DNA of 64,000 nt from an uncultured Gemmatimonadales bacterium (GTDB lineage Bacteria; Gemmatimonadota; Gemmatimonadetes; Gemmatimonadales; GWC2-71-9): NCBI GenBank assembly GCA_963779755.1, contig CAVZZO010000003.1, positions 1,600,001 through 1,664,000 of the forward strand, read 5' to 3'. Of this stretch, positions 10,133-45,694 are shown in pieces (the first letter of the stretch is position 1; the number at the start of each line of letters is the position of its first letter). The notes beneath the pieces are model-generated. The model was not told where the DNA came from, ran no database searches, and saw nothing but the letters and a program-made list of their open reading frames with translations. The translations under genes were made by a program, and so were the position numbers.

Positions 10133-10145
10133 TGAATACTACTCA
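10133..10145. promoter_or_regulatory. Candidate LysR T-N11-A box
   Basis: TGA-N7-TCA just upstream of the LysR start in the divergent intergenic region. Confidence 0.5.
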
Positions 10146-13864: not shown

Positions 13865-13956
13865 CGGAGCAGTCTCCTACATTTCGGGTCCCTTTCCTGC
13901 GACGGAGTGCCGATCTGCGCGCCTATCACCCTGCCCTGCTGGCCGTCGGCCGGGCC

Positions 13957-24610: not shown

Positions 24611-25180
24611 ATGAAGAGAGGTCATGTGAGGCGACGATTTGTGGTCGGGTGCGCATTGCTGCTGAGCGCGGCGGCGTGCGGCGATGCTGCCAGTCCCAGC
24701 GGTAGCCCTCCGACAGTACTCGTGACGAATGCCACATGCGCGTCCGGGCGCTGTGCCACTCTTGAAATCCGGGCGTACGTCTGGAAGTTTCCTGTCCCGC
24801 AGACGCCCGACGGGCTCCGTATTCTCGGTGAAGCCCCACCGGGGCAAACGTGCCTTCTCTTTCCAGCGTCCTGGCCCTTAAGCATCATTGGTCCGGACAC
24901 TACAGGCCAGATTGACACCACTATCGTGACCTGGACCCCCGGCGATGCGGACGGGATTTACTTGATTGCGGTTGACAGCCTGGTGTATCACGGCGGTGGG
25001 AGTGCAGGTCAAGTTGACAGTACTAATCAAGGCATTCCGCCCTTTGACGGCGTAGACTTTGCGAGTGTGGGGGAGACCCCCACTTTCGTGCCCGGGATAG
25101 CCGATGGCTGGGCCGTCACCTTCCCGAGTACGCCACCATTCAGCGCATCTCTCACCAAACCGGGCGCGTGCAAGTCGTGA
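24611..25180 (+). CDS. Hypothetical lipoprotein
   Basis: Basic N-terminus, hydrophobic stretch, lipobox AAAC; lower GC than flanks. Confidence 0.7.
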   Translation: MKRGHVRRRFVVGCALLLSAAACGDAASPSGSPPTVLVTNATCASGRCATLEIRAYVWKFPVPQTPDGLRILGEAPPGQTCLLFPASWPLSIIGPDTTGQIDTTIVTWTPGDADGIYLIAVDSLVYHGGGSAGQVDSTNQGIPPFDGVDFASVGETPTFVPGIADGWAVTFPSTPPFSASLTKPGACKS

Positions 25181-25267
25181 GGAACTTCTCTTCCGGCTTA
25201 TGCCGCGTGCTTGCACATGCCGGATATCCAGCGTGGTTGTGCCTTCAATGAAAGGAGTCCAGTCGCC

Positions 25268-25785
25268 ATGCGTGATAAAATGGGAGCAGCATTGCTCGTG
25301 TGCTCGCTTGTCGCTCTCGCGGCGTGTGATCAAGGGACAGTGTCGCCGAACTCATCACGCGATCAGCCCGATTTGGCAGTGGGTCGTCAAAGCGACTCGG
25401 TGGCTACTCCAGCGGGCTGGTATGATCGGTCGTGCGTGCACGAGATTCCAAATGGCGCGCATGTGAGCACTAGCGGCCTCGTCACGCCCCGTAGTGGCAC
25501 CACTTTTCAAGTTCCAGCCTGTTCGCATCCCCCGCGTCCGAACGTACCCAATAACGGTGGATCCAACAGCCCCATGTTTCCAGTCAACAATGGCTGGATG
25601 GAATACGCGTACTACGCGCTGGCGTCCGGCCACACCTTCCATCAGCTGAACGCTGGCTGGCGCGTACCACCAGCGCCAGCGGGCTCGTATTCCGGCACCC
25701 AGACTTATTATAGCTTCCCGGGCTTAGAGAATGGATCCTACATCATCCAACCGGTGGTTCAGTACGGCTACAACGGGGCGTTTGG
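25268..25785 (+). pseudogene. Secreted lipoprotein, 5' part, interrupted by IS256
   Basis: AAAGGAG RBS, lipobox LAAC, 'TPAGW..SCVHEIP' and 'IIQPVVQYG' blocks; frame runs into the IS end. Confidence 0.7.
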
Positions 25786-27159
25786 GGTGCCGTCCCGATT
25801 CGTGTAGAAAATTGAAATGGCGTATGCTTCCGGGATGATCGAACCCCGATCCGCCGAAGTGCGGATCTAACCCGGAGGCATACGCCATGAGAGAAGTTAC
25901 GGCCACGGAGCAGGGGTGGGAAGCACTGGTCGGGGCGGACCCGCTGACGGCGGCCCTGCGCGGCGAAGCGCGGCGCTGGATTGAGCGCATGTTGCACGAG
26001 GAATTGGCGGCCGTCTTGGGCAGCGGCCGGCATGAGCGGACCGCCGCCCGGCAGGGATATCGGCACGGCACCCGGCGGCGGCGGGTGACGACCAGCCTGG
26101 GCCCCGTGGATCTCGCCATCCCGCGAGGGCGGGTGCAGGCGGGCGCCGAGCTGCGGGAATGGCAGAGCGGGCTGCTGCCGCGGTACGCGCGCCGAGCCCG
26201 GGCGGTGGATGCGGCGCTGGTCGGCTTCTACTGCGGGGGCGGCAATCAGCGGCGGCTCGCCCGGGCGCTCCGCTCGCTGCTGGCCGACGGTCCCGCCTCG
26301 CGGAGCACGGTCTCGCGCGTCGTGCGGGGGCTGCGGCAGGGCTACGAGGCGTGGCGCGAGCGCCCCCTGGGGGAGTTGGGGGTGCAGTATCTCTATCTGG
26401 ATGCGATCCACCTGCATGTGCGGGTGCTCAAGCGGGTCGAGCCGCTCCCGGTCCAGGTGGCGGTCGGGGTGCGGCCCGACGGGCAGAAGGTGCTGCTGGA
26501 TCTCCGGCTCTACGTCGCGGAGAGCGCCGCGGCCTGGGGCGACTTCGTGCGCGGGCTGGTGGAGCGCGGCCTGGTCGCGCCGGCGCTGGTGATCACCGAC
26601 GGCAGCAAGGGTCTGCGCCGGGCGCTGAGCGAGATCTGGCCGCAGGCTGCGGTGCAGCGCTGCACGGTGCATAAGCTGCGCAACCTGGCGGCCCACTGCC
26701 CGCAGCGGCTCTATCCGGCCGGCAAGCGCGACTACCACGCCATCGTGTATGCCGCCGATGCGGAGGCGGCGCGGCGGGCCTGGGGGCGGTTTACCCGCCG
26801 CTGGGGCCGGGAGCTGCCGGGGGTGGTGGCGAGCCTGGAGGAGGCGGGCGAGGAGCTGCTCACGTTCTATCGCCTGCCGAAGGCGCAGTGGAAGAGCCTG
26901 CGCACGACGAATATCGTCGAGCGCGTGCTGGAGGAGGTGCGACGGCGAGTCAAAACGCAGGGATCGCTGCCCAGCACCGAGGCCGTCCTGGTGCTCGGCT
27001 ACGGTCTGATCGCGACGGGGCAACTGCCCTTGCGGCGGATTGCCGGCTGGCGAACCTTGCCCCGTGTCAGTAACCGTCAAGCGGCTGCATGAGCGCCTGA
27101 CACGCTTGGAGGCCCGGAGACAGCGCCCATTGATTTTCTACACAACTCGGGACACGACC
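25786..27159 (+). mobile_element. IS256 family insertion sequence (1374 bp)
   Basis: Imperfect terminal IRs GGTGCCGTCCCGATTCGTGTAGAAAAT and (reverse complement of right end) GGTCGTGTCCCGAGTTGTGTAGAAAAT; no target duplication seen. Confidence 0.92.
25887..27092 (+). CDS. IS256 family transposase
   Basis: YLYLDA, ITDG, QRCTVHKLRN (CxxH), RTTNIVER DDE motifs. Confidence 0.95.
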   Translation: MREVTATEQGWEALVGADPLTAALRGEARRWIERMLHEELAAVLGSGRHERTAARQGYRHGTRRRRVTTSLGPVDLAIPRGRVQAGAELREWQSGLLPRYARRARAVDAALVGFYCGGGNQRRLARALRSLLADGPASRSTVSRVVRGLRQGYEAWRERPLGELGVQYLYLDAIHLHVRVLKRVEPLPVQVAVGVRPDGQKVLLDLRLYVAESAAAWGDFVRGLVERGLVAPALVITDGSKGLRRALSEIWPQAAVQRCTVHKLRNLAAHCPQRLYPAGKRDYHAIVYAADAEAARRAWGRFTRRWGRELPGVVASLEEAGEELLTFYRLPKAQWKSLRTTNIVERVLEEVRRRVKTQGSLPSTEAVLVLGYGLIATGQLPLRRIAGWRTLPRVSNRQAAA

Positions 27160-32965: not shown

Positions 32966-33172
32966 CGGAATAGCCGTCAGGAGGAATGTAACAGCGGGAT
33001 CGTATGCACCGGGCTCAGGCGGGGGAGGTGGAGCCACGTGCCTGGGCGCGGAACCACGCCATGACGGCGGCGCGGCTGCGGCGGCTCACGGGGATCGCAA
33101 CGCCGGATTGAAGGACCAGCCTGCCTCCCCCGCCCGCGCGGACAGCGGGGAGATGCGATTAGTGTTTCAGGC

Positions 33173-33817
33173 ATGGCAGGCATCTCCTCCAGCAGCTCGC
33201 CGCCGGCGGTCTGGGCGCTGGTACTCGCCGCGGGAACCGGCAGCCGCTTCGGCGGCGGCAAGCTGCTCGCCCCCTACCGGGGAACGCCGCTGCTCCAGCC
33301 GGTCCTGGAGGTCGTCCGGTCCGCCGTCCGGAGTGGCGCGCTGGCAGGGGGCGCCGCGGTGCTCCCGGCGGGCAATGAAGCGCTCGCGCGGCTGGTCCGG
33401 GGCGTTGCCCTCGATCCGGTCACGAGCGACGATCCCGGCGCCGGTCTGGCCGGTTCCCTGCGGTCGGGCCTGGCCCATCTGGCCCGGCGCGCCGGCCCGC
33501 GCGACGCGGCGCTCATTTTCCTGGGAGACCAGCCCGGGGTACGCGAGACCGTGGTTGCCACCCTGGTAGCGGCGTTCCGGCACGACCCCGATCCGGTACG
33601 GCGTCCCCGCTACCGCCAGGAACCGGATATCCCGGGACACCCGGTCCTCATTCCGCGCCGGTACTGGCACCTGGCCGGTGCTCTGGAAGGCGACCGGGGC
33701 TTCGGCGCGCTCCTGCAGGATCGCGCCGTGCCCGTCCACCCGATCGACGTGCCCGGCCGAAACCCCGGCGTCAACCTGCCCGGCGATCTCGCCCGCCTGG
33801 AATCCGAGCCGCGGTGA
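33173..33817 (+). CDS. mocA: MobA-like NTP transferase (molybdenum cofactor cytidylyltransferase-like)
   Basis: LAAG.GSRFG..KLL, LGDQP, GHPV, GDRG. Confidence 0.8.
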   Translation: MAGISSSSSPPAVWALVLAAGTGSRFGGGKLLAPYRGTPLLQPVLEVVRSAVRSGALAGGAAVLPAGNEALARLVRGVALDPVTSDDPGAGLAGSLRSGLAHLARRAGPRDAALIFLGDQPGVRETVVATLVAAFRHDPDPVRRPRYRQEPDIPGHPVLIPRRYWHLAGALEGDRGFGALLQDRAVPVHPIDVPGRNPGVNLPGDLARLESEPR

Positions 33818-34806
33818 GGCTCACATTCTCCGGCGCGCCCGAAGTCGCCGCGCCCCTGGATCATGTCTGGCGCAAGGTGCTCGACCCCCGCGCGGTCGCG
33901 GCCGCGGGGCCCGGGGTCGAATCGGTGCGCGTCCTCACCCCGGAGCGGTTCCGGGTCATCACCGGCTTCGGCCTGGGCGGTCTGCGTTTCCGCTTCGGAC
34001 TGGACGTCCGGCTGTTCGATATCATCCATCCGACGGAAGTGAAGCTGCGCGCCAGCGGCCACGCACCCGGTTCAGGCCTGGACGTGCTCGCCGCCATCCG
34101 GCTGGAGTCGCTGGGCGCCGCCCGTACCCGGCTGCACTGGGCCGCGGAGTGCGGCGTGAGCGGCATGCTGGGCCGGATCGGCGCCCGGATGATGGAGCCC
34201 ACCGCCCGCCGGCTGACCGGCGAGTTCTGGGACCGGTTCGTGGAGTCCATCGGCATCGTGATGCCGCCCCTGGCCGACCGCCGCACGGCCCAGTGGACAC
34301 CGGCCCGGCTCGCCTCGCCCGCCGCCGCCTCGCTGGCGGGCGCCCTCCTGCTGGACGACGCCCTGCTGCCGCAGGGCGTGATCCCGCTGGGCACGATGCT
34401 CGATGCGTCGCAGGTGGCCGCCATCAGCCGGGCGGCGCGGCAGGGCACGCTCGCCGCCCGGCTGCGGTTCGTCTGGCCTGCTCCGGGCGATATCCCCGGT
34501 AACGACGCCGCCGCGCGGCTGGCCGGCCGCTTCGGGCCGGGGCTCACGGTTTCGCCTCCGGCGTACAGCCGTGTCCGCATCCATGCCCCTCAGGCGGGAC
34601 GGTTCGCGGTTGCCCGCGAGATCGTCACCCGGCTCAATCAGCATGACCTGCTCGATATTCAGCTCGTGCGCAGCGAAGGGCCGGTGGGTGCGGGGGCGCT
34701 GCTGGCCGAACTGGGCTGTCCCTATCACCTGATGCCGGCGGCGGAGCTGGAGCGGATGGAGCAGTGGGCCCCCGCGACGCCACCGGTGCTCCGGCTGGAA
34801 TCCTGA
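33814..34806 (+). CDS. CoxG (SRPBCC) domain fused to a MoeA-like N-terminal region
   Basis: 'APLDHVW..VLDP......PGVESV' and 'G.LGRIGARMM' CoxG pattern, then about 180 extra aa; GTGA coupling. Confidence 0.7.
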   Translation: MRLTFSGAPEVAAPLDHVWRKVLDPRAVAAAGPGVESVRVLTPERFRVITGFGLGGLRFRFGLDVRLFDIIHPTEVKLRASGHAPGSGLDVLAAIRLESLGAARTRLHWAAECGVSGMLGRIGARMMEPTARRLTGEFWDRFVESIGIVMPPLADRRTAQWTPARLASPAAASLAGALLLDDALLPQGVIPLGTMLDASQVAAISRAARQGTLAARLRFVWPAPGDIPGNDAAARLAGRFGPGLTVSPPAYSRVRIHAPQAGRFAVAREIVTRLNQHDLLDIQLVRSEGPVGAGALLAELGCPYHLMPAAELERMEQWAPATPPVLRLES

Positions 34807-34813
34807 CCCGCCG

Positions 34814-35611
34814 GTGAGCGATCATCGCATCCGCAGCAACGGCGTCTCCCTGGCCGTGCGAGATGAGGGCACCGGCGTGCCGCTCCTCCTGCTGCACGGC
34901 ATGTGGTGCCGCGGGAGCATGTTCGATCGGCTGCTGCCGCACCTCCGCGGCTACCGCATCATCATTCCCGATCTCCGCGCCCACGGCGACAGCGACGTGC
35001 CCCGCGCCGGCTGGAGCCTTCGCGACCTCGCCCGCGACTGCCGCACCATCCTGGAGACGCTGGAAACCGGACCGGCCCTGGTGGCGGGCTTCAGCATGGG
35101 GGGCATGGCCGCGCTCCACCTGGCCCTCAAGTCTCCCGGGCTGGTGCGCGGCCTGGTGCTGCTCGGCACCTCCGCCGAAGGCGAGAACGCGCTCCGCAAG
35201 GCGGAGATGATTTCCCTCATCGGCCTGATCCGGCTGGGACTGCCCCGCAGCCGGGTGGGAACCGAGGCCGCGCGCTGGATGTTCAGCCGGGCGTTCCGGG
35301 AGGACCATCCCGACGTGGCGCACGCCTGGTCGAAGGACGTCGCCGCCATGCCGCGGAAGGCACTGACGCAGGCGCTGGAAGCGGTGGGGCGGCGTCCCTC
35401 GCTCACCCGCCGGCTCGCCCGGCTGACCCTGCCGGCGAGCGTCGGCGCGGGCGACAAGGACGTCGTGCTGACTCCCCGCCACTCGAAACGCCTCGTCCGG
35501 GTGCTCCCCGGCGCCACCCTGCGCATCCTGCCGGGAGTGGGGCACGCCCTCCCGATCGAGGCGCCGGAGGCGGTCGCCGGGATGATAGGCGAGCTGCCAG
35601 CCCTGCCCTAG
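34814..35611 (+). CDS. Alpha/beta hydrolase (lipase/enol-lactonase-like)
   Basis: LLHG, PDLRAHG, GFSMGG, GDKD, GH. Confidence 0.88.
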   Translation: MSDHRIRSNGVSLAVRDEGTGVPLLLLHGMWCRGSMFDRLLPHLRGYRIIIPDLRAHGDSDVPRAGWSLRDLARDCRTILETLETGPALVAGFSMGGMAALHLALKSPGLVRGLVLLGTSAEGENALRKAEMISLIGLIRLGLPRSRVGTEAARWMFSRAFREDHPDVAHAWSKDVAAMPRKALTQALEAVGRRPSLTRRLARLTLPASVGAGDKDVVLTPRHSKRLVRVLPGATLRILPGVGHALPIEAPEAVAGMIGELPALP

Positions 35612-35715
35612 GCCCGCGGGCCTGCCCTTCATGAAGAATCCTTCCCTCCATCTTCGTGAAGATTCTAGGGGCACCCGCCTAGCATGCAGGCACGTTCCCG
35701 GCCCAGCGACGTGTC

Positions 35716-37257
35716 ATGCGGATTCCCAGCCTGCTCCTGCGACAACTGTACACCTTCGGCTCCCTGGCGAATGAGGGGGAGGGGTTTCATTTCAGCCTGA
35801 AGAACCGGCTGCGCGACGTGACGCTGACGCGGGTTCGGAGTCTGCGCGTGGACGGGCTGGACATCCCCCTGGACGATCTGGTTATCGATCTGGGCGACGG
35901 GCACACACTGCGCGCGACGGAGATCTCCCCGCAGCGGCCCCAGGCCTTTCCGCTGCGCCAGGGGGCGCGGCTCCGCAGCGCCAGGGGCCTCCTGCCGCAG
36001 GGGCCGCACGAGATCCGCATCACCTTCGAGACGCTGCCGTTCGGGTCCATGGAGATCGCGGTCAAGGACGTGATCGCCGAGTGCGCCACGCACCACTCCG
36101 CGCTGCCCTGCGACAAACAGCACAACGCCACGCCGGCCATCATCCGCCAGCGGCAGCGCTTTGTGGAAGAGTACAGCGGAGTCGCGCTGCAGCACCTGAC
36201 CCGGTACTCCTTCGATCCCGGCATCACCCACGGCAACATCGAGAACTTCACCGGCGTGGCCCAGGTGCCGCTCGGCTTCGCCGGCCCCATTCGCATCAAC
36301 GGCGAGCACGCACAGGGCGACTTCCTCATACCTCTGGCCACCAGCGAAGGGACGCTGGTCGCCTCCTACAACCGGGGGATCAAGGTCATCAATCTCTGCG
36401 GCGGCGTCACCTGCACGGTCACCGACGACTGCATGCAGCGGGCACCGGTCTTCATCTTCGATTCGGCCCGCGAGGCGCGCGATTTCCGCGACTGGATCAA
36501 CGAGCACATGGAGGACATCCGCCGGGAATCGGAAGCGACCTCCCATGTGGCGAAGCTGCTCTACATCGACGTCTACCTGTCCAACAAGTTCGCCTACCTC
36601 CGGTTCAATTTCTCCACCGGCGACGCGGCGGGCCAGAACATGGTGGGCCGCGCGACCTTCGCCGCCTGCAGCTGGATCCTGGAAAACGCGGCCGGCGTCC
36701 GGCGGTTCTATCTGGAGTCCAACCTCGCCACCGACAAGAAGGCCTCGCACGTCAACCTGCTGCGCACCCGGGGGAAGCGCGTCACCGCCGAGGTGGTGGT
36801 GCCCCGCCGGTTGCTGCTGGAGCATCTGCGGGTGGAACCGGAGAGCCTGACCTATCATGGCGGGGTCGCCAATGTCGGCGCCTTTCTGTCCGGCGCCCAC
36901 AACAACGGGCTGCACTCGGCCAACGCCATTACCGCGATGTTCATCGCCACCGGCCAGGACGTGGCCAACGTGGCCGAAGCCTCCAGCGGGATCATCTACA
37001 GCGAACTCACTCCCGCCGGCGACCTGTATCTCTCCATGACGCTGCCCTCGCTCATCGTCGCCACCCATGGCGGCGGCACCGGCCTCGCCACGCAGCAGGA
37101 ATGCCTGGCGATTCTCGGCTGCACCGGCAAGGGCACGGCGAAAAAGCTGGCCGAGATCATCGCCGGTGTGGTGCTGGCGGGCGAGCTGTCGCTGGCCGGG
37201 GCCATCTCCTCCCTGGAATGGGTGTCCGCCCACGAGGAATACGGGCGGAACCGCTGA
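35716..37257 (+). CDS. Class I HMG-CoA reductase homologue with extra ~130-aa N-terminal domain
   Basis: GNIENFTG, ATSEGTLVAS, TGDAAGQNM, DKK, GQDVANV, GELSL..H. Confidence 0.88.
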   Translation: MRIPSLLLRQLYTFGSLANEGEGFHFSLKNRLRDVTLTRVRSLRVDGLDIPLDDLVIDLGDGHTLRATEISPQRPQAFPLRQGARLRSARGLLPQGPHEIRITFETLPFGSMEIAVKDVIAECATHHSALPCDKQHNATPAIIRQRQRFVEEYSGVALQHLTRYSFDPGITHGNIENFTGVAQVPLGFAGPIRINGEHAQGDFLIPLATSEGTLVASYNRGIKVINLCGGVTCTVTDDCMQRAPVFIFDSAREARDFRDWINEHMEDIRRESEATSHVAKLLYIDVYLSNKFAYLRFNFSTGDAAGQNMVGRATFAACSWILENAAGVRRFYLESNLATDKKASHVNLLRTRGKRVTAEVVVPRRLLLEHLRVEPESLTYHGGVANVGAFLSGAHNNGLHSANAITAMFIATGQDVANVAEASSGIIYSELTPAGDLYLSMTLPSLIVATHGGGTGLATQQECLAILGCTGKGTAKKLAEIIAGVVLAGELSLAGAISSLEWVSAHEEYGRNR

Positions 37258-37259
37258 CC

Positions 37260-38948
37260 ATGGCTTCGCCCCTGCCCACCGTTTCCGCCGGATCTCCCGC
37301 GCCCGACGCGCCACCGGCCTTCGAGCTGGCTGCCGTGGGGCCGCCGCCCGGGATCATCCGCCGGATCTTCGTCACCAACCGGCATCTGGCGGGGCTGGTA
37401 GCCGGCGCGCTGGTGGCGCATGTGGATTCCGGCCGGCAGAACGGGGCGCGGGGGCCGCGCTTTCGCATCCAGCAGGCGCTGGCCCTGGTGGTACGGCCGC
37501 TCCTCGACCCGCAGCTGCGCGACGCGCCCTTCCCGGTACAGCTGCGGCGGCGGCTGGAGCGGCTGGGACCGACCTACATCAAGCTGGGGCAGATCCTGAG
37601 CCTGCGCGAAGACATCCTGCCACGGCCGGTCACCGACGAGCTCAAGAACCTGCTGAACCGCCTGCCGGTGGTGCCGCTGCCCGTCTTCCTCGCCCAGGTG
37701 GAGAAGGATCTGAAGCGCCCCACCGAGCAGATGTTCTCCTGGATCGATCCCGAGCCGCTGGGTTCCGCGTCGATTGCGCAGGCCCACCGCGCGCGCACGC
37801 TGGCGGGCGACGACGTCATCCTCAAGGTCGTGAAGCCGGGCATCAAGGAAACGCTCAAGCGCGACGCCCGGCTGCTGGGCATCGCCGGGGCGGTGCTGCA
37901 GATCTTCTTTCCCCGCTACCAGCCGCGGCGGATCATCCGCGAGTTCACCACCTACACCCTGCGTGAGGTGAACCTCCGCCGGGAAGCGGACAATGCCGAG
38001 ACCTTCGCCGGCAACTTCCGCGATATGCCGGATGTGGTCTTCCCCACGATCTACCGGGAGTACAGCGGGCCCAGCGTTCTCTGCATGGAGTTCCTGGACG
38101 GCTTGCGCCCGGACACTCCGGCCGCGCAGGCGCTCCCGGAGGAGCAGCGGGAGCGCCTGGTGGATCTGGGCGCCGCGTCCATCATCCGCATGATCTACCA
38201 GGACGGATTCTTCCATGCCGACCTGCACCCGGGCAACCTGGTGGTCCTGCCGGACGCCCAGGTGGGCTTCATCGACCTGGGCATGGTGGGCCGCCTCGAC
38301 GACGAGCTCCGCCGCACCCTGCTCTACTACTACTACTCGCTGGTGATGGGGGACGCGGAGAACGCGGCCCGCTACCTCGCGGCCATCGCCGAGCCGGGCC
38401 GCGGCGGCGACCCGGGCGGCTTCCGCCGCGAGGTCACGGAAATCTCCCGCCGCTGGAAACGGGCCGCGAGCTTCGATTCCTTCTCGCTGGGCCAACTGGT
38501 GCTCGAGTCGGTGACCCGCGGCGCCGAGTTCGGGATGTACTTCCCGGTGGAGATGGTGCTGATGGTGAAGGCGCTCATCACCTTCGAAGGGGTGGGCAAC
38601 GTGCTGCTGCCGGGCTTCGACGTGGCCGAAGTCTCCCGCCGCCACGTGCGCCGGGTCTTCCTCCACCAGTTCAGCCCGGTGCGCTTCCTCCAGGAAGGGC
38701 TCCGCGGCGCTCCCGACCTGGTGGACGCCATGGTCAAGATGCCGCTGCTGGTGACGGAGGGGCTGCGGGTGCTGGAGAAGACCACCCGCCGCCGGCCCGA
38801 GAGCCCGCTGGCCGGCATCCGGGGCACGCTGCTGGCCGGTTTCTGCCTGGTGGCGGGTTCCATCGTGATGGTCTACCACGGCCCCTGGCCGCTCTGGGCC
38901 GCGCTGTTCGCGGCTTCCCTTCCCCTCGCCTTCCATCGCAATGGCTGA
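37260..38948 (+). CDS. ABC1/AarF/UbiB atypical protein kinase
   Basis: LGPTYIKLGQ, GSASIAQAH, ILKV, FHADLHPGN, IDLGM; C-terminal TMs. Confidence 0.92.
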   Translation: MASPLPTVSAGSPAPDAPPAFELAAVGPPPGIIRRIFVTNRHLAGLVAGALVAHVDSGRQNGARGPRFRIQQALALVVRPLLDPQLRDAPFPVQLRRRLERLGPTYIKLGQILSLREDILPRPVTDELKNLLNRLPVVPLPVFLAQVEKDLKRPTEQMFSWIDPEPLGSASIAQAHRARTLAGDDVILKVVKPGIKETLKRDARLLGIAGAVLQIFFPRYQPRRIIREFTTYTLREVNLRREADNAETFAGNFRDMPDVVFPTIYREYSGPSVLCMEFLDGLRPDTPAAQALPEEQRERLVDLGAASIIRMIYQDGFFHADLHPGNLVVLPDAQVGFIDLGMVGRLDDELRRTLLYYYYSLVMGDAENAARYLAAIAEPGRGGDPGGFRREVTEISRRWKRAASFDSFSLGQLVLESVTRGAEFGMYFPVEMVLMVKALITFEGVGNVLLPGFDVAEVSRRHVRRVFLHQFSPVRFLQEGLRGAPDLVDAMVKMPLLVTEGLRVLEKTTRRRPESPLAGIRGTLLAGFCLVAGSIVMVYHGPWPLWAALFAASLPLAFHRNG

Positions 38949-40152
38949 GCCGGCCACTCTCCCCGCGCCGCCGCCGGCGACCCCGACGCCGCGGGAATGG
39001 GAGCCGTTCGACCCCGGCTTCTGCCGGGACTTCGTGAAACGCGCGGTGGCCCCGGCGTCCGATCACTGGTTCCGGCCGCAGCTCCTGGGAGCGCAGCGCA
39101 TTCCCCGCCATGGGCCGGTGATCCTGGCCGCCAACCACAGCGGCACCGCGTTTCCCTATGACGGGATGATCCTGGATGCGTATCTCTGGCGGCTGGACGG
39201 ACTCAGGGCGGGCGCCAAGTTCCGGACCGTCTACGAGAAGGAGCTCTCGTTCCGCTGGTGGATGCGGCCCTTCGGCCTGGACAACTTCTGGCGCCGGGGC
39301 GGCGGGGTCGACATGACGTTCGACAATTTCGACCGTCTCCTCGCCCGCGGCGACCGGGTCATCTACTTCCCCGAAGGGGTTCCCGGTATCGGGAAGGGAT
39401 TCCAGAACCGTTACCGGCTGCAGCGGTTCAGCACCAGCTTCGTGCTGCTGGCCGCGCGGCACGGCGTGCCGGTGATTCCGCTCTATATCCTGAACGCCGA
39501 ATGGGTGATGCCGTATCACTTCACCCTGAAGCCGCTCGACCGGCTGATGCAGCGGGTTTTCCACGTCCCCTTCCTGCCGCTGCCGGCCGGCATCCTGGCG
39601 ATCATCTTTCCCTGGATGTGGTATCTGGCGCTGCCGGCCCACATGATCTTCGTGGCGGGGAAAACGCTCGACATGGCCCCGCTGCTCGCCTCCGAGGGGG
39701 TGACCGACCTCGACCGGCCCGATCGCGCCGCGCTGCAGCATGTGGCCATGAAAGTGCGCCACGCCATGCAGGCGGAGCTGGACCAGCTGGTCCAGCTGCA
39801 CGGCCGGCGGCCCTACCGGCTGCGGATGCTGCTGCGCGAGCTCTGGCGGGCCCGCCGCCGGCTGGGGGCCATCCTCCCCATTGCGTGGCCGGCGACCTTC
39901 CTGCGCTCCGAGCGCGACCGGCTCCGGCCCCCGGCCCGGAACCGGCTGCATGCCCTGCTGCGCGACTGGGATCTGATCGGGTTCTACCTGCCGCTCGGCT
40001 GGCCCCTGCTCTCCATCTTCCGGGCCCTGCGCCGGCCGCCGTACGGCTATCGCGGCATGAGCCGGGAAGAGGCCCGGCGCAAGCGGGGAGAATTCATCTG
40101 GCGGCTCGCCGAGAGGCCGCTGCCGGACAGAGAGAAATGGACTGAGGACTGA
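38941..40152 (+). CDS. Lysophospholipid acyltransferase family protein (PlsC/DGAT2-like) with C-terminal extension
   Basis: ANHSG...YDG, YFPEG, ARHGVPVIP; overlaps kinase stop. Confidence 0.85.
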   Translation: MAEPATLPAPPPATPTPREWEPFDPGFCRDFVKRAVAPASDHWFRPQLLGAQRIPRHGPVILAANHSGTAFPYDGMILDAYLWRLDGLRAGAKFRTVYEKELSFRWWMRPFGLDNFWRRGGGVDMTFDNFDRLLARGDRVIYFPEGVPGIGKGFQNRYRLQRFSTSFVLLAARHGVPVIPLYILNAEWVMPYHFTLKPLDRLMQRVFHVPFLPLPAGILAIIFPWMWYLALPAHMIFVAGKTLDMAPLLASEGVTDLDRPDRAALQHVAMKVRHAMQAELDQLVQLHGRRPYRLRMLLRELWRARRRLGAILPIAWPATFLRSERDRLRPPARNRLHALLRDWDLIGFYLPLGWPLLSIFRALRRPPYGYRGMSREEARRKRGEFIWRLAERPLPDREKWTED

Positions 40153-40252
40153 GGACTGAGGACTGAGGACGCCAAGCTCAGTGTCACCCTGAGGGAGCGC
40201 AGCGACCGAAGGGGCCGAAACCCGGGGCCCTCAGTCCTTTTCTCTCAGTCCT
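40140..40252. repeat. (GACTGAG)x4 with inverted CTCAGTCCT copies and a REP-like element GTCACCCTGAG..GAGCGCAGCGA..GAAGGGGCC (40183-40216)
   Basis: Read directly between converging genes. Confidence 0.8.
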
Positions 40253-41424
40253 TTTTCCACCGAAGCCAGCGCCCGCTCCAGTCTCCGCGTCACCGGCAGC
40301 GGCCGGCCCGACCGCGTGAGCCCCACCTCCGCCCACAAGTCGCGTTTCCGGTCGCGCAGGACGTCCAGCCGGAGGCTGACGCCGTGGCGGGCCAGCTGCG
40401 GGGCCAGCTCGCTGCGCCGGCGCCAGAGGTCGCGCCGGGTAGCCTCATAGGCCAGCTCGCAGACCCGGCGGCGGGATGAGAAGCTGAACACGTTGGTGAA
40501 GAACATCTGATACTCGTCCGGCTCCGGCTCGAAGAGCAGCACATCGGCATGCGGGTAGCGTGTTTCGTAGGCCGCCATGCCCACCTCTAGCCGCGAGTGG
40601 ATCAGGGTCCGGAAGGTCTGGGAGAAGACGGTGGGGAATCCCCGCTCCACCAGGGCGCCGTGCGGCAGCCCGGGCCCTTCGACATCATCCCGGGTATCGG
40701 CCGGCACCAGCGGATTGACGCAGAACAGCAGGTCGGCCCCTTCATCCAGGGCCACCGACGCGTGCAGCGTCTTCAGGAGCACCCCGTCGACGCAGTAACG
40801 TCCATTCACCTCCACCGGCGGATAGACGCCGGGGACCGCGGTGCTGGCCTGCACCGCCACCGAGATGGGCACCCCGTCCCAGCCCCGGTGGCCGAACCGC
40901 ACCGGCCGCCCCGATTCCAGATCGGAGGCGATGACGATGAGCCGGGAATCCAGCCGGCGAAAATCGTCCGTGCGCCCCTTGAGGCTGAAGGTGCGGGCCA
41001 GATACTCCCGAATGGGGTCGTTATTGAAGATGCCCACCGGCAGCGCCCGGGCCAGGCGGGTGAGCGATTCGACTATGCGCTGGTCGCGCGGGTTGCGGAC
41101 ATAGCTCCATAGCGCCTCGGCCAGGAGCCGGGGCAGCATGCCGCCCCGCCGGAGCAGTTCACCGTAGGCCGGCGTGAAGAACCGGACCGGATCGAACGGG
41201 TGCTCACCGGGATCGTGCTTGACCATGGCACGGACCAGCTGCGCCGGGGTCAGGCCGTTGGCCAGGAGCGCCGCAATGAACGACCCGGCGCTGACGCCCA
41301 CGTACACCGGCAGGCGATGAAAATCGACCCCATCCAGCGCCTCCTGGAGCGCCCACAGGGCGCCGATCTCGTACACGGCGCCCTCTGGACCCCCGCCCGC
41401 CAGCGCCAGGCCTATCCGGGACAT
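40231..41424 (-). CDS. Patatin-like phospholipase/esterase
   Basis: ALAGGGPEG, GVSAG nucleophile, ASTAVPG, VDG. Confidence 0.92.
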   Translation of the reverse strand: MSRIGLALAGGGPEGAVYEIGALWALQEALDGVDFHRLPVYVGVSAGSFIAALLANGLTPAQLVRAMVKHDPGEHPFDPVRFFTPAYGELLRRGGMLPRLLAEALWSYVRNPRDQRIVESLTRLARALPVGIFNNDPIREYLARTFSLKGRTDDFRRLDSRLIVIASDLESGRPVRFGHRGWDGVPISVAVQASTAVPGVYPPVEVNGRYCVDGVLLKTLHASVALDEGADLLFCVNPLVPADTRDDVEGPGLPHGALVERGFPTVFSQTFRTLIHSRLEVGMAAYETRYPHADVLLFEPEPDEYQMFFTNVFSFSSRRRVCELAYEATRRDLWRRRSELAPQLARHGVSLRLDVLRDRKRDLWAEVGLTRSGRPLPVTRRLERALASVEKGLREKD

Positions 41425-41439
41425 GGCGCCTCCACCGCG

Positions 41440-41868
41440 TCAGGCAGTCGCCGCGGCGGCTTTCTTCCGGCGCGTGGTCTTGGCCCGGCGTCCCTTCGCC
41501 TTCGACCGCTCGACCGTGCGGGTCAGCTCCTCCACCCGGCGGGTCAGCTGCATGATCTCTTTCCGGGTCGGCACGCCGATCCGGTGCAGCGCCGTGGTCA
41601 TCCCGCTGTCCAGCGGGGCCGTCAGACGGTCCATCGCGCCGCCGGCGTCGGTCCGCAGATCGTCCATCCGGTCTTCCACCCGGGTGATCATCTTCTGCAG
41701 ACGACTCTTGTTCACCTTCTCCAGCGTCTGGCCCTTCTTGACCAGCGTCCGGAACAGCTTGCTCCCTTCCTCGCCGGCCAGGGCAAAGGCGCCGAGCCCG
41801 GCCAGCCAGATGTTCTGGGCCGAGCCGCGGAGCGTCGGCACTGCCGTGGTCTTCTTGGTCCTGGGCAT
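41440..41868 (-). CDS. Phasin (PhaF/PhaI-type granule-associated protein) with basic tail
   Basis: IWLAGLGAF...EEGSKLF..LVKKG, ALHRIGVPT.KEI..L; AAGGAGG RBS. Confidence 0.88.
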   Translation of the reverse strand: MPRTKKTTAVPTLRGSAQNIWLAGLGAFALAGEEGSKLFRTLVKKGQTLEKVNKSRLQKMITRVEDRMDDLRTDAGGAMDRLTAPLDSGMTTALHRIGVPTRKEIMQLTRRVEELTRTVERSKAKGRRAKTTRRKKAAAATA

Positions 41869-41915
41869 ACATCCTCCTTACAGGTAATTCGTCCTGCCGT
41901 GAACGGCCTCCGCTC

Positions 41916-42401
41916 TTACGCAGAGGCCGTGTGCCGGCGGCGCCGGCCGCCCGGCTTGCCACTCTCCCCCACCCGCGTGTGTTCCAGCGTCTCCAGCGAC
42001 TGCTCCAGCCGCGCGATCCCCTCCCGCAGCGCTTCCATTTCACCCCGCGCCGCCCGCACGCTCGGCAGCCGGTCCACCGAGGAGCGCATCAGGCTGCCCA
42101 CCCGCGTCTGCAACTGCTCCACCCCGGTGTTCAGCGCCTTCTCTCCCCGGCGAATGACGTCGTGAAACAGTTCGACCGGGAGAAACGAGATGCCGCGCTT
42201 CTCGCCCTCGAAGATGATCTGGGCCAGGGTCTGGGATGTGACGTCGTCGCCGCTCTGGCTGTCCACCACCCGGAGCTCCTGCCCGGCGCGAATCCACTCC
42301 CGGACCTCGTCCAGCGAGATATACCGGCTCTCTTCGGTGTCGTAGAGCTTGCGGCTTCCCCCACCGTACCGCTTGATCAGCCGGATCATCTCCGCCGCCA
42401 T
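41916..42401 (-). CDS. phaR: PhaR-like PHA/PHB accumulation regulator DNA-binding protein
   Basis: IKRY...RKLYDTEESRYISL, VVDSQSGDDVT..TLAQII. Confidence 0.85.
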   Translation of the reverse strand: MAAEMIRLIKRYGGGSRKLYDTEESRYISLDEVREWIRAGQELRVVDSQSGDDVTSQTLAQIIFEGEKRGISFLPVELFHDVIRRGEKALNTGVEQLQTRVGSLMRSSVDRLPSVRAARGEMEALREGIARLEQSLETLEHTRVGESGKPGGRRRRHTASA

Positions 42402-42491
42402 CCTTTCCGCAGCGGGGCATGGTTGCCGCACTGCGGTATAACACTAGACAATCCGCCATGAAGGCAGCGTGAATCGCGCGTGAGAAGGCGG

Positions 42492-43568
42492 CTAGCGGGA
42501 AGGGCGAAGCGTGCGGTCGGTCGCCGACAGGCGGCGCAGCAGGTCCCGGCCGAGCGCGCCCAGCTCCGTCAGCCCGGTAGGAGGATCGGCCAGGAGCGGC
42601 AGCCCGGCCACCGGATGGTCGGGTAACAAATCCTGCAGCAGTTGCAGGCCGCGCTGGTCGCGCTCGCCCTGCCACGCCAGGAGGCGCAGTCCCTCCGGCA
42701 CCGCCGCTGGAAGCGCCGAGGCGGGCAGGGGCGGGTGCAGCTGGTTGGCGACTACCGCGCGCAGGTGATATCCCTCCTCCACCAGCCGGCGGGCGAAGAA
42801 CATGGTGTCCGCGTTGCGCTCATCGCCCGGTCCCGCTACCAGCAGAAAGGCGGTGCTCCGGTCGCGCAGCAGGTCGCGTACCGACCCGGCGCGCTCACGG
42901 AATCCCTGATACAGGGGAGCGAAGGCCTGGAAGAACTCGGCCATATCCCGCAGCAGCCCGAGCCCCACCAGCCGGTTCAGCATGGCCTCCACCCCCCGAC
43001 CCACCACGCCCCCGCGGATCCGGCCCCGGGCATCGAACCAGGGCCGCAGCGCGATGCGCCATGCGCCGCTGTCGAGGAACTGCACGATCCGGTCGGGCGC
43101 GTGGAGAAAATCGAGGGCCTGGCGTGTGGGCGGCGTGTCCAGGATGATGCGGCCGTAACGCTCGGCCTCGGCCACCTCGAAGAGGCGCTCCACCGCCATG
43201 TACTCCAGAATGCCGGCGAGGCTGCCGGAAAGGTGATGATAGAACCGGTTGGTGAAGATGCGCTCGGCGGCCGCGTCGTCCGGCGAGTAGCGGGCCACCA
43301 GCCGGTCGAACGTGGCTCCGGCATCCAGCAGGCTCGCATGCAGGCTGCCCCGTGCGCGCAGACGCACCGGGATTTCACGGTCGGCGCCGGCGAGCCCCAC
43401 CCCCAGGGTGTCCTTGAGCCGGCGCGAAGGATCGAACGTCATCACCAGCGTGTCGGCTCCCGAACGGGCGGACGCTACGCCCAGGGCGGCGGCAAGCGTG
43501 GTCTTCCCCACGCCGCCCGATCCCACCACAACCAGCAGCGGATAGCGCAGGAGCGAGCCGTAACTCAT
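42492..43568 (-). CDS. ArsA/Get3-family ATPase (subunit B-like)
   Basis: GSGGVGKTT, TFDPSRRL, LDTPPT..ALDFL.AP. Confidence 0.88.
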   Translation of the reverse strand: MSYGSLLRYPLLVVVGSGGVGKTTLAAALGVASARSGADTLVMTFDPSRRLKDTLGVGLAGADREIPVRLRARGSLHASLLDAGATFDRLVARYSPDDAAAERIFTNRFYHHLSGSLAGILEYMAVERLFEVAEAERYGRIILDTPPTRQALDFLHAPDRIVQFLDSGAWRIALRPWFDARGRIRGGVVGRGVEAMLNRLVGLGLLRDMAEFFQAFAPLYQGFRERAGSVRDLLRDRSTAFLLVAGPGDERNADTMFFARRLVEEGYHLRAVVANQLHPPLPASALPAAVPEGLRLLAWQGERDQRGLQLLQDLLPDHPVAGLPLLADPPTGLTELGALGRDLLRRLSATDRTLRPSR

Positions 43569-44464
43569 GCGTCCACTCCGGCCAGCTGGGTACCGAGTCG
43601 CTCGGCCAGTGCATCCACCAGATCCCGTCCGGGGGGCAGGGGAAGCAGCGGCAACGCGGGCAGCGCACCCGGCCAGGCCCGAGCGAGCCTGGCCCGTTCC
43701 GAACGGTTCAGCTTCCAGCGCGCAGTCCAGAGCTGCAGCGCGCTTTGTGCTGCCGCGCCGAGCGGGGGAAGTCCGGCGGGAACCGCGGGATACATCCGGT
43801 TGAGGACGATCATCTCCGGCCTCCGCCCCAGCCGTTCGCGGGCGGCGGCGAGCAGCTCGATAGCCTCCTGAACCGGGAGCTCCTCTGCCAGAGCGCCCAG
43901 CACCAGCCCGCAGTCCTCTCCCGCCAGGAAGCGGGCGAGATCCCGGGCCATGCCGCCCAGCTGGCCGTCCCCCAGCACATCGCCCAGGAGGGCCGGAGCG
44001 CTGAGGAGAGAGATTCCATGACCGGTGGCGGGCGCATCCAGGATCACCTGGTCCACGTCAGGCCCCGTTTCCCCGCGGATCACCAGCAGGGCGTGGCCCA
44101 GCACCGCCATCTCTTTCAGGCCCGGCGCCCCCGCGGTAAAGTGCTGAAAGACCGGGTGCGCTACGATCCTGGAGGCAACGGCCCGGATCTTTACTTTCTG
44201 CCGCACCAGTTCCTCCAGCACCGCCCTGGGCTGGATGTTCTGCACCCAGAGTCCGGGACCGCTCTGCACCGGCGTCCCGCCTGACGGCGGGCATTCCACC
44301 AGCTGGTGCAGGCTCTCCCGCGGGTCGGTCTCCATCAGCAGGACCCGCCGCCCCTCCCGGACAAACAGGCGGCCCAGCGCGGCGGTCAGCGTGGTCTTGC
44401 CCACGCCGCCTTTCCCGGTCACCACCAGCAACCGGCGCCGAAGCAGGCTTTCCAGAAGCGCCAT
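43565..44464 (-). CDS. ArsA/Get3-family ATPase (subunit A-like)
   Basis: TGKGGVGKTT, APGLKE, LDAPATGH, LAEELPVQE; ATGA coupling. Confidence 0.88.
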   Translation of the reverse strand: MALLESLLRRRLLVVTGKGGVGKTTLTAALGRLFVREGRRVLLMETDPRESLHQLVECPPSGGTPVQSGPGLWVQNIQPRAVLEELVRQKVKIRAVASRIVAHPVFQHFTAGAPGLKEMAVLGHALLVIRGETGPDVDQVILDAPATGHGISLLSAPALLGDVLGDGQLGGMARDLARFLAGEDCGLVLGALAEELPVQEAIELLAAARERLGRRPEMIVLNRMYPAVPAGLPPLGAAAQSALQLWTARWKLNRSERARLARAWPGALPALPLLPLPPGRDLVDALAERLGTQLAGVDA

Positions 44465-44506
44465 GCCGCCAAGGTAGTAAGCGGCGCATGAAGCGGATAT
44501 GAAGAA

Positions 44507-44603
44507 GGAGTCAGGAGTCGGGAGTCGGGATCAGGGCCCCCATTCCTGACTCCTGATTCCCCATTCCTGATTCCTGATTCCCCATTCCTGATTCCTGATT
44601 CCC
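44507..44603. repeat. Inverted heptamer arrays (GGAGTCA-like / ATTCCTG, ATTCCCC)
   Basis: Read directly in the divergent intergenic region. Confidence 0.85.
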
Positions 44604-44626
44604 GGCTCCTCCCTTAGTCTTCGCTC

Positions 44627-45694
44627 ATGCGCGATGTTCTTCGGGAATACCAACGCCTGCGACAGGATGGAACGGAGGTCGGACGCGCTGTCGTCACGGC
44701 CGTCTGGGGATCCGCTCCAAGGCCGGCGGGAGCTTCTCTCCTGGTTGCCGCCGACGGACGCATGGCGGGGTCGGTCTCGGGTGGCTGCGTGGAAACGGCC
44801 GCCGCCGCCGCCGTCCTCGAGGTCCTGGCGAGCGGCCAGCCACGGGTGGAGCGGATCGGCGTCAGCAATGAAAGCGCCTGGGAGGTAGGACTGGCCTGCG
44901 GCGGCACCATTTCGCTCCTGCTGGAGCCGTCGGTGCGGGAAGAGCTGCTGCTAGCGGCGGGTGGCGAGGGCGGTACCGTGATCGGGACGGTGGTGGGGGG
45001 CGGCACCGCCGTCGGCGCGTCCATTATGCTCCTGCCGGAGGAAGGCCGGGCCACCACCGCCGATCCGCTGCTGCGGCGCCTCGCGCCCGACCTGCTGGCG
45101 GCCGCCGCCGGGGCCCTGGGCACGGAGCAGAGTAGCGTGGCAACGGTGGGCACCGGCACCGATCAGGCGGAGGTCTTTCTCGAGGTCTTCCCCCGCCGGC
45201 CACGGCTGGTGGTCTTCGGCGGCGTGCACATCGCCGCGGAGCTGGTGACCCTCGCCCGGCGCATGGGCTTTCATACCGTGGTGGCCGATGGACGCGCGGT
45301 CTTTCTCACCCGCGAGCGTTTTCCCGATGCCGATGAGCTGATCCTGGCGTGGCCGGAGGAGGCCTTCGCCCGCACCGGCCTGGACGCCGCGACCTACGTC
45401 TGCGTCCTCTCGCACGATCCCAAGTTCGACGAGCCGGCTCTGCGCCTGGCCCTCCGCTCGCCGGCCCGCTACATCGGCGCCATCGGATCGAAGAAGACCC
45501 AGGCCGACCGGCGCCGGCGCCTGGCCGAGGCGGGGTTTGCCCCGGAAGAAATCGGGCGCATTCACGGCCCCATCGGCCTGGACCTGGGCGGCCGCGGCGC
45601 GGCCGAAACCGCGCTGGCGATCCTGGCGGAGATGATGGCGGTCCGGTTTGGCGCCTCCGGCAGGCCCCACTCGGGAGAAGGCGCAACGTCCTGA
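44627..45694 (+). CDS. xdhC: XdhC/CoxI molybdoenzyme maturation chaperone
   Basis: WGSAPRP.G, GSVSGGCVE, GLACGG, HDPKFD, YIGAIGS, PIGLDLG. Confidence 0.92.
   Translation: MRDVLREYQRLRQDGTEVGRAVVTAVWGSAPRPAGASLLVAADGRMAGSVSGGCVETAAAAAVLEVLASGQPRVERIGVSNESAWEVGLACGGTISLLLEPSVREELLLAAGGEGGTVIGTVVGGGTAVGASIMLLPEEGRATTADPLLRRLAPDLLAAAAGALGTEQSSVATVGTGTDQAEVFLEVFPRRPRLVVFGGVHIAAELVTLARRMGFHTVVADGRAVFLTRERFPDADELILAWPEEAFARTGLDAATYVCVLSHDPKFDEPALRLALRSPARYIGAIGSKKTQADRRRRLAEAGFAPEEIGRIHGPIGLDLGGRGAAETALAILAEMMAVRFGASGRPHSGEGATS

Follow-up and report, generated by a model that had tools for sequence, protein, structure and literature searches.

The 64,000-nucleotide stretch of DNA analysed here (the window; positions 1,600,001 to 1,664,000 of contig CAVZZO010000003.1, assembly GCA_963779755.1, from an uncultured Gemmatimonadales bacterium) holds a cluster of nine genes which, with a probability of about 0.6, encodes a wax-ester-type neutral-lipid body system using a coat and a sensor in the style of polyhydroxyalkanoate (PHA) granules. 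Among the observations behind this reading are the following: the reductase of the cluster has the residues that mark the FcrA family of fatty acyl-CoA reductases, the phasin and PhaR families of this phylum travel with FcrA, and the gene slot beside FcrA is filled either by a PlsC-like acyltransferase, as in the window, or by a wax ester synthase/diacylglycerol acyltransferase (WS/DGAT), never by both. The source genome (4 contigs, 4.23 Mb) has a completeness of 96.97%. Because the G+C content of the window is about 69%, open reading frames (ORFs) were judged by their family matches and not by their length, and gene calls were checked against Pfam and NCBIfam models, with the NCBIfam cut-offs applied. 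The nine genes in two convergent runs listed in a preliminary description of this DNA were all confirmed in this way, at the coordinates given below for each gene.

The reductase gene (35716..37257, + strand, 513 residues) matches PF00368 (1.6e-123) and PF25653 (8.6e-32) and encodes an N-terminal beta domain called Lad (35734-36075), a linker and a catalytic domain (36142-37248) resembling that of 3-hydroxy-3-methylglutaryl-CoA (HMG-CoA) reductase (HMGR). It had been described as a class I HMGR homologue; the family is correct, and the closest solved structure to the catalytic domain is that of an archaeal class I HMGR (6hr7, 292.5 bits), but the protein is not an unexplained one, since its pocket residues and its Lad domain place it in FcrA, an HMGR-derived fatty acyl-CoA reductase (Grossi et al. 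2025, ISME J; PMC11948995). In the parts of that article on which we rely, the enzyme Pb-FcrA reduces C4-C18 acyl-CoA to alcohol and does not reduce HMG-CoA, Pb-FcrA together with WS/DGAT leads to wax esters in E. coli, and an all-beta Lad domain is joined by a linker to the N-terminal side of part of the family. The criteria for membership were taken from the same source: the catalytic residues Glu559, Lys691, Asp767 and His866 (human HMGR numbering) together with three diagnostic substitutions in the pocket, where Glu replaces Ser684, a small residue takes the place of the salt-bridge Lys, and Trp replaces Leu862. The window protein has the catalytic residues E176, K341, D415 and H506, each invariant in 77/77 aligned relatives. 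Pocket positions were mapped through alignments with 6hr7 and a plant HMGR, and we take their human numbers to be those given here: E334 (human S684) is kept in 77/77 relatives, W502 (human L862) in 76/77, and position 385 (human K735), which we take to align with the lysine binding the HMG carboxylate in HMGR, is Ala in the window and small in all 77 relatives (Ala in 61, Ser in 14, Gly in 2), never Lys. That lysine is printed as 'Lys795' in the article (PMC11948995). On these residues it is shown, or close to shown, that the reductase belongs to FcrA, and it would thus make a long-chain fatty alcohol and not mevalonate. The chemistry is therefore largely known, and the atypical polyester once suggested as an alternative cargo becomes unlikely.

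Some further observations concern the domains of the reductase. The AlphaFold2 (AF2) model of the Lad domain has a mean predicted local distance difference test (pLDDT) score of 87.3, with nine beta strands and one short helix, and residues 123-140 are disordered. Among solved folds, the Lad model (35716-36135) comes closest to C-glycoside deglycosidases, namely to their small beta subunits (DgpB/DfgB/CarC-type), with template modelling (TM) scores of 0.58-0.67, E values down to 7e-07 and 16-20% identity; the domain is termed undescribed in the text of PMC11948995 at our disposal. PF25653 was unmatched in three genomes (G016, G056 and G076) where the catalytic domain is present, the tblastn match in G016 covering about 438 residues. 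A KSB1 locus (L067) has a second, truncated FcrA copy (13407-14432), 1.9 kb downstream of the full one; in this copy the Lad domain is followed by no more than the first 153 catalytic-domain positions.

For the comparison with relatives, one genome per species was scanned for FcrA, which gave at least 589 relatives; the best 80 loci (61-71% identity) were kept and mapped by tblastn, using as queries the window proteins and the WS/DGAT, FadD and glucose-methanol-choline (GMC) oxidoreductase proteins of relatives. These 80, the best of at least 589, come from Gemmatimonadota, several classes of Acidobacteriota, Calditrichota, KSB1 and Rhodothermales, and also include metagenome-assembled genomes (MAGs) of Chloroflexota, Actinomycetota, Planctomycetota and Myxococcota; 48 of them extend at least 8 kb downstream of FcrA and are called long loci here. 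An ABC1 gene adjoins FcrA in 58/80 loci and in 38/48 long loci, and the long loci hold a phasin in 22 cases, PhaR in 20, a patatin in 21 and the two ArsA-like genes in 13 and 12. The two modules are juxtaposed in several phyla, in differing orders, and in KSB1 and Calditrichia the ABC1 and acyltransferase genes sit with phasin and PhaR and not with FcrA. Five genomes with FcrA and no adjacent phasin were checked for a phasin elsewhere, and four had one (PF05597): beside the detached phasin were found PhaR and patatin in L092, PhaR, patatin and the BagA/BagB-like pair in L093, and PhaR, an acyltransferase-like gene and ABC1 in L095, while in L094 the phasin alone was matched by the queries. Since the arrangement recurs in loci from several phyla, it is not due to chance.

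The coupling was also followed genome by genome in one sample of 201 genomes of the window's phylum, whose counts are not independent events because the carrier genomes are related to one another. A phasin above cut-off occurs in 17/201 genomes, spanning six genera (g1, g7, g16, g17, g39 and g53), and these include all 14 genomes with a Lad domain (PF25653). All 17 carry an FcrA-type gene, which lies on the contig of the phasin except in the fragmented G104 and G146, where it is on another contig; in the three Lad-less phasin genomes the FcrA-type catalytic domain is found a few kb from the phasin, apparently without Lad. PF00368 was matched in 25/201 genomes, and the 17 with a phasin are exactly those whose best match reaches at least 401 bits. 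On the other side, PhaC_N was found in only 4/201 genomes, in 0/17 of those with a phasin and in 0/5 carriers from other phyla. In this phylum, phasin and PhaR thus accompany FcrA rather than a PHA synthase, and the earlier claim that the two runs belong together is borne out by synteny as well as by phyletic co-occurrence.

The acyltransferase (38941..40152, + strand, 403 residues) was characterised at the levels of family, motif and fold. PF01553 (1.2e-10) is its only Pfam match, even at E<=10, and no NCBIfam model matched it. The model (pLDDT 84.2) shows a PlsC-like fold over the first 250 or so residues, the best fold match being PlsC 5kym (E 2.1e-05, TM 0.57 on the target), followed by a helical C-terminal extension of about 150 residues; a hydrophobic stretch lies at 206-236. 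Two motifs are invariant in 21 sequences of the family, N65-H66-S67-G68...D74 and P144-E-G-V-P-G-I-G-K-G-F154. The His-Asp spacing is HX7D, where the usual spacing in lysophospholipid acyltransferase (LPLAT)/acylglycerol-phosphate acyltransferase (PlsC-like) enzymes is HX4D. A DGAT2-like identity, to which a lead from the ESM Atlas had pointed (0.93 to PF03982 clusters), was rejected: PF03982 (DAGAT) was unmatched at E<=10 in a check that covered five members of the family.

The main argument for the function of this enzyme comes from the slot it occupies. Beside FcrA/ABC1, a PlsC-like acyltransferase is found in 16/80 loci and WS/DGAT in 14/80, never both, and an acyltransferase of either type is present in 21/48 long loci; WS/DGAT directly adjoins FcrA in one Rhodothermaceae and one Calditrichaceae locus. 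The same holds for the 17 phasin genomes, of which 7 (one genus) have WS/DGAT, always inside the cluster, and the other 10 (five genera) have an acyltransferase of the window type at 62-67% identity; none of the 17 has both and none has neither. Because the two types fill one slot in a complementary manner, the LPLAT-fold enzyme is taken to do the job of WS/DGAT, and we infer from this gene-slot replacement that it is a fatty-alcohol O-acyltransferase standing in for WS/DGAT. In the window genome itself, the profile search for WS/DGAT (PF03007/PF06974, TIGR02946) found nothing, with a control that matched nowhere; the search was therefore repeated by tblastn with the WS/DGAT proteins of three relatives, which also found nothing there. 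Published data include one Holophagaceae contig with fcrA beside WS/DGAT, in the portion of PMC11948995 that we use. Two other families recur near FcrA, FadD11-like acyl-CoA ligases in 10/80 loci and, in 13/80, alcohol-oxidase-like GMC oxidoreductases that are relatives of cholesterol oxidase. Orthologues of both are encoded in the window genome far from the cluster, the GMC protein at G000:C1:977335-978921 (68% identity to that of L020) and the ligase at G000:C3:846607-848400 (49%). As side observations, a Holophagaceae WS/DGAT is split into two ORFs, one for the catalytic and one for the C-terminal domain (L036, 3947-5242), and one Gemmatimonadota acyltransferase orthologue has an in-frame TGA (G056:C66:2349-3479); both may be frameshifts, assembly errors or decay.

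The - strand run provides the coat and the sensor. The phasin (41440..41868, 142 residues, PhaF/PhaI type, PF05597 9.3e-33), proposed as droplet coat, scores 92.5 bits against TIGR01837 (cut-off 94.7) and is present in a single copy in the genome. Its C-terminus (41440-41500) is basic and rich in Lys, Arg and Ala: KAKGRRAKTTRRKKAAAATA. PhaF-type phasins have nucleoid-binding tails, and the resemblance hints at a role in droplet segregation. The PhaR-like regulator (41916..42431, PF07879 4.3e-23; 82.4 bits against TIGR01848, cut-off 109.45) has an ORF that opens at GTG 42431, its likely start being ATG 42401 behind GGAAAGG, which gives 161 residues.

Upstream of PhaR, in the 60-90 bases that separate it from the BagB-like gene, lies a putative PhaR operator region (42405..42436, without strand). 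On the coding strand it contains the palindrome CCGCAGTGCGG in exact form (42426-42436), after which comes a degenerate second copy. The 64-kb window has no other exact match, and 11-mers with one mismatch are at chance level in it (8 found, 9.9 expected). Among relatives, at least 19/21 loci have the motif TGCCGCAnTGCGG[T/C]A no more than 400 bases upstream of PhaR, spanning Gemmatimonadota, Acidobacteriota, KSB1 and Rhodothermales, usually in two copies, one of which overlaps the -10 element of a TTGACA...TATAAT promoter; it is also found upstream of phasin genes detached from PhaR, and when 1.26 Mb of loci were scanned loosely on the + strand, 30 of the 91 matches fell in the short stretches upstream of PhaR or phasin. 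This conservation fits an autoregulated PhaR-phasin-patatin unit. The operator core has 20 exact copies in the genome, and the three best-flanked of the others adjoin genes for a peptidase M28, a molybdopterin enzyme and a zf-HC2 protein; they look like chance copies and give no sign of a wider PhaR regulon. In four Acidobacteriota loci that have FcrA-ABC1 and no nearby phasin, an operator-like motif with good flanks, TTGACGCAnTGCGGCAT, was seen about 6 kb downstream (L057 15672, L061 17354, L063 17500 and L074 17243, the last three being Sulfomarinibacteraceae MAGs). In L061 it lies inside an ORF (16657-18171), about 60 bases upstream of the start of a ParA/MinD-like (AAA_31/CbiA) domain. It may be another PhaR target.

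The remaining five genes encode putative helpers and candidate esterases. The ABC1/UbiB-family atypical kinase-like protein (37260..38948, + strand, 562 residues, PF03109 6.1e-60) reaches 300.8 bits against the UbiB model TIGR01982 (cut-off 487.55) and 223.4 against PRK04750 (667), and as it is below the equivalog cut-off it is a UbiB-family paralogue and not the UbiB of ubiquinone synthesis. Its C-terminal hydrophobic hairpin, G..GFCLVAGAI..GPWP..LF..LA.RR with a central GPWP, is conserved in 56 sequences; a second, distant ABC1 gene (29% identity) is present elsewhere in the genome. The two ArsA/Get3-fold ATPases, BagB-like (42492..43568, - strand, 358 residues, PF02374 6.3e-22) and BagA-like (43565..44464, - strand, 299 residues, PF02374 6.3e-21), have as best NCBIfam matches the models of BagB (NF053621, 228.2 bits, 1.6e-67, cut-off 521) and BagA (NF053622, 79.4 bits, cut-off 400), and their P-loops are intact (GSGGVGKTT and GKGGVGKTT, respectively). 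The pair stands beside PhaR in 12-13/80 loci. In Rhodothermales a different Get3/ArsA protein, with an HSP20-like domain, is encoded directly upstream of FcrA, so Get3-fold ATPases have been recruited to the system twice. A complex prediction of BagA and BagB with the 70-residue C-terminal hairpin of the UbiB-family protein scored 0.00, which has no bearing either way. The roles we propose for these three proteins are drawn from their constant neighbourhood and from knowledge of their families, and the earlier idea that the Get3-like pair targets coat proteins is a conjecture from gene neighbourhood.

Patatin-like lipases are recognised by a Gly-rich oxyanion motif, a GXSXG serine and a DG(A/G) aspartate, and the patatin of the cluster (40231..41424, - strand, 397 residues, PF01734 6e-25), the proposed mobilising esterase, has GGGPEG, GVSAG and DGV; its orthologue, at 52-64% identity, follows the phasin in most loci with the second module. 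The alpha/beta hydrolase (34814..35611, + strand, 265 residues, PF12697 2.4e-25, PF00561), a candidate esterase, has a GFSMG nucleophile elbow and is far below the NCBIfam cut-offs of its nearest models (PcaD-like, 112.8 bits for 255.85; intracellular short-chain-length PHA depolymerase, 64 for 300). With their catalytic motifs present, both look active. Orthologues of the hydrolase occur upstream of FcrA in 9/80 loci, all of Gemmatimonadales type, and it is absent from the rearranged cluster L097: it is an accessory member specific to one lineage.

Taken together, the nine genes suggest the following scenario. FcrA would reduce acyl-CoA to a long-chain fatty alcohol by an NADPH-dependent four-electron reduction, and the LPLAT-fold acyltransferase would use an acyl thioester to esterify this alcohol. 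If PHA granules are a guide, the resulting hydrophobic ester would gather in the cytoplasm, in bodies for which the phasin provides the coat. In PHA biology, PhaR moves from DNA to hydrophobic surfaces; here it would sit on the palindrome in its own promoter until drawn off by such a surface, and its withdrawal would release the expression of PhaR, phasin and patatin. The patatin, perhaps with the alpha/beta hydrolase, would cleave the ester bond again when the store is mobilised. With its C-terminal hairpin as a putative anchor, the UbiB-family protein may handle or regulate a hydrophobic lipid at the membrane or the droplet, and the BagA/BagB Get3-fold ATPases may help to place hydrophobic protein segments. 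The neutral-lipid inclusion of the preliminary description, with its cargo made by the reductase and the acyltransferase, is thus favoured by the synteny, the co-occurrence, the absence of PhaC and the presence of WS/DGAT in the acyltransferase slot. A broader statement, namely that phasin and PhaR, a module known until now from PHA granules, are native coat and sensor of wax bodies in bacteria without PHA from at least five phyla, that an LPLAT wax synthase and not WS/DGAT serves about half of these clusters and that UbiB and BagAB are biogenesis factors, is offered only tentatively, and all its parts are rather unlikely to be right together.

Several points weigh against a wax body. The reading is drawn from sequence data, and the searches for the WS/DGAT and class III PhaC families had weak controls. 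Because the window genome is without WS/DGAT, the ester-forming step rests on an uncharacterised acyltransferase. PhaR, phasin, UbiB, BagA and BagB are all below their NCBIfam cut-offs and hence are relatives, not equivalogs, of the named families. In 26/48 long loci, genes for phasin, PhaR and patatin are all missing within 10 kb, and one of the five FcrA genomes checked for a detached phasin, an Acidimicrobiia MAG, has no phasin at all. Eight of the 25 genomes with PF00368, at 349-391 bits, have no above-cut-off phasin; their genes possibly belong to other subclades. No copy of the PhaR motif precedes the FcrA operon in the window. Lastly, in the available sections of PMC11948995, the association of WS/DGAT with fcrA is noted to be looser than that with acrB, and a PlsC-like gene beside fcrA in Coxiella is read as an ether-lipid enzyme.

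The last point leads to the alternative that survives best, which we nevertheless hold to be unlikely: the FcrA alcohol and a PlsC-like acyltransferase acting on dihydroxyacetone phosphate (DHAP) or glycerol phosphate would lead to alkyl-ether lipids and serve membrane remodelling, while phasin, PhaR and patatin would serve membrane stress or an unrelated function. In the part of PMC11948995 cited above, this is the pathway proposed for genomes with AGPS and for the PlsC-like genes that adjoin fcrA (Coxiella), and it agrees with the PlsC/GPAT fold of the acyltransferase and with the many Acidobacteriota loci that hold FcrA-ABC1 without storage genes nearby. It does not account well for the 14 loci in which the same slot holds WS/DGAT, an enzyme making neutral-lipid esters, nor for the mutual exclusion of WS/DGAT and acyltransferase in 17/17 genomes; nor would one expect a membrane-lipid pathway to occur so tightly together with phasin, PhaR and a lipase.

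Far less probable is a PHA-like polyester granule with an unrecognised synthase, in which the alpha/beta hydrolase or another enzyme would be the polymerase. The PF05597 phasin and the DNA-binding domain of PhaR do belong to classical PHA granule families, and the hydrolase is weakly similar to PHA depolymerase models. But neither PhaC_N nor the class III PhaC model was found in the window's own genome, which confirms for the whole genome the absence of phaC reported earlier from the window; the class III model TIGR01836 was found in 0/22 carrier genomes, with a control that matched only weakly, and PhaC_N in none of these 22 either. No canonical phaC locus was found in the window genome that could stand behind its phasin and PhaR. 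Moreover, the hydrolase is absent from most clusters, the reductase is one that forms fatty alcohol, and the swap partner of the acyltransferase is WS/DGAT. The only strong PhaC_N match in the 201 genomes (G175:C291:3137-3640, 178.6 bits) is in a bin of about 290 contigs and may be binning contamination. Elsewhere in the window, a 524-residue alpha/beta hydrolase (9747-11321) was considered as a hidden PhaC and rejected, its best models being haloalkane-dehalogenase-like, with no PhaC_N match; its alpha/beta-hydrolase domain covers only residues 262-490, which leaves about 240 N-terminal residues unexplained.

A true HMG-CoA reductase, making mevalonate for an isoprenoid or another mevalonate-derived product, is more improbable still. 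The strong PF00368 match and the intact catalytic residues are what such an enzyme would have, but the lysine for the HMG carboxylate is replaced by Ala and is Lys in none of the 77 relatives, Ser684 and Leu862 are changed to Glu and Trp as in FcrA, and the assayed Pb-FcrA does not reduce HMG-CoA (PMC11948995, in the text at hand). The preliminary description had noted that the window holds no other mevalonate gene, and in the whole genome HMG-CoA synthase (N domain) was not found and no mevalonate kinase scored above cut-off (best 82.7 bits for 163). Among 120 (71 + 49) scanned proteins neighbouring FcrA in relatives, none belongs to a mevalonate-pathway family. As far as a sequence can exclude an activity, mevalonate production is ruled out. 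A search for conventional fatty acyl-CoA reductases (FAR-type NAD_binding_4, PF07993) gave a best score of 64.3 bits in the window genome and says nothing about them because the family was matched in all 14 control genomes. Finally, that the two runs are unrelated neighbours met by chance is the least credible explanation of all: each is transcribed as a unit of its own from the opposite strand, and many genomes have them apart, but they are juxtaposed in several phyla in differing orders and co-occur in 17/17 phasin genomes of the phylum sample, and in KSB1 and Calditrichia ABC1 and acyltransferase are beside phasin/PhaR instead of FcrA.

To return to the layout of the cluster, the ABC1 start codon lies 2 bases after the stop of the reductase, and the acyltransferase ORF overlaps the ABC1 stop by 8 bases. 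On the - strand the order of transcription is BagA-like, BagB-like, PhaR-like, phasin and patatin, the first two ORFs overlapping by 4 bases, and the two runs converge on a gap of 78 bases. A consensus promoter scan of 33000-45000 found 0 sites and is uninformative at 70% G+C. By Pfam, the cluster is flanked by MobA-like and CoxG genes on one side (33173-34806) and by XdhC on the other (44627-45694). These molybdenum-enzyme accessory genes bracket the cluster in another genus as well (L097, G053:C4), where it is internally rearranged, and true molybdenum-hydroxylase subunits are encoded just upstream in L020; the cluster looks as if inserted into a group of molybdenum-cofactor accessory genes. 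The remainder of the window holds unrelated housekeeping genes, a restriction-modification gene of the Eco57I/N6_Mtase type encoding 1011 residues (18689-21724) and a Mutator-family transposase (25887-27092, PF00872 2.4e-79), beside which the G+C content dips to 0.615 (24001-27092). A search of sequencing runs found no matching RNA run, and one soil-metagenome DNA run shares a small part of the words.

Several known systems resemble parts of the proposed one. With the PHA granule the window shares the PF05597 phasin, the PF07879 domain of PhaR and a palindrome in the promoter of PhaR itself; unlike it, the carriers examined have no PHA synthase, the phasin and PhaR of the window are below the NCBIfam cut-offs, and they are accompanied by a fatty-alcohol reductase, a proposed ester synthase and a lipase. 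Actinobacterial triacylglycerol/wax-ester droplets combine an acyl-CoA reductase with an O-acyltransferase and are mobilised by lipases, as proposed for the window, but they use WS/DGAT and reductases of the short-chain dehydrogenase/reductase type, so that the fold of the reductase and the families of coat and regulator differ. The mycobacterial BagA/BagB pair (Rv3679/Rv3680) consists of two adjacent ArsA/Get3-fold ATPases in the same order as in the window, and in the available part of its description it is tied to glycerol and nitric-oxide tolerance and not to phasin or wax genes (PMC10597346); the window proteins score far below its equivalog cut-offs (228 for 521 and 79 for 400). ABC1 kinases are established lipid-droplet proteins of cyanobacteria, seen in the Synechocystis cyanoglobule proteome, and the DGAT2-like acyltransferase slr2103 is a droplet protein of a bacterium as well; in place of phasin/PhaR or FcrA, plastoglobules and cyanoglobules have fibrillins and prenyl-lipid enzymes, and the likeness to the window was seen at the level of the ABC1 domain (PMC12223511, for the part consulted).

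The closest system is the FcrA + WS/DGAT pathway, with which the window shares the reductase family, the Lad domain, the pocket substitutions and the lack of a mevalonate pathway; sister clusters have WS/DGAT beside the reductase, and the window differs by its LPLAT-fold acyltransferase in that place (PMC11948995, as far as its text was available). FcrA and the FcrA + WS/DGAT route are accordingly already published, and so is FcrA beside WS/DGAT or PlsC-like genes, which qualifies the earlier statement that no described system has this combination of genes. That statement stands for the whole set: the main text of the same article does not mention UbiB/ABC1, phasin, patatin or Gemmatimonadota, and the literature searched contained no paper joining FcrA or wax esters with phasin/PhaR, UbiB or BagAB and no description of the cluster, of the acyltransferase swap or of the operator. 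Not found in print are thus the 17/17 coupling of phasin with FcrA without PhaC, the mutually exclusive occupation of one slot by WS/DGAT and LPLAT, and the PhaR operator shared across phyla.

If the wax-body reading is true, wax-ester storage would extend to phyla abundant in soils and sediments (Gemmatimonadota, Acidobacteriota, Calditrichota, KSB1 and Rhodothermales). These phyla are poorly cultured, and since PhaC is absent from them and WS/DGAT often is too, they usually count as free of storage lipids. A survey based on WS/DGAT would then overlook every genome with the LPLAT-type enzyme. The cluster would also provide a compact list of parts, namely a reductase, an ester synthase, a coat, a sensor with its operator and a lipase, useful for studies of droplet building and for wax-ester engineering. 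Finally, it would give a concrete hypothesis for bacterial UbiB paralogues and BagAB-type ATPases and, should the broader statement above hold as well, a first cellular role for the BagAB class known from mycobacteria and for the bacterial UbiB proteins that do not serve ubiquinone.

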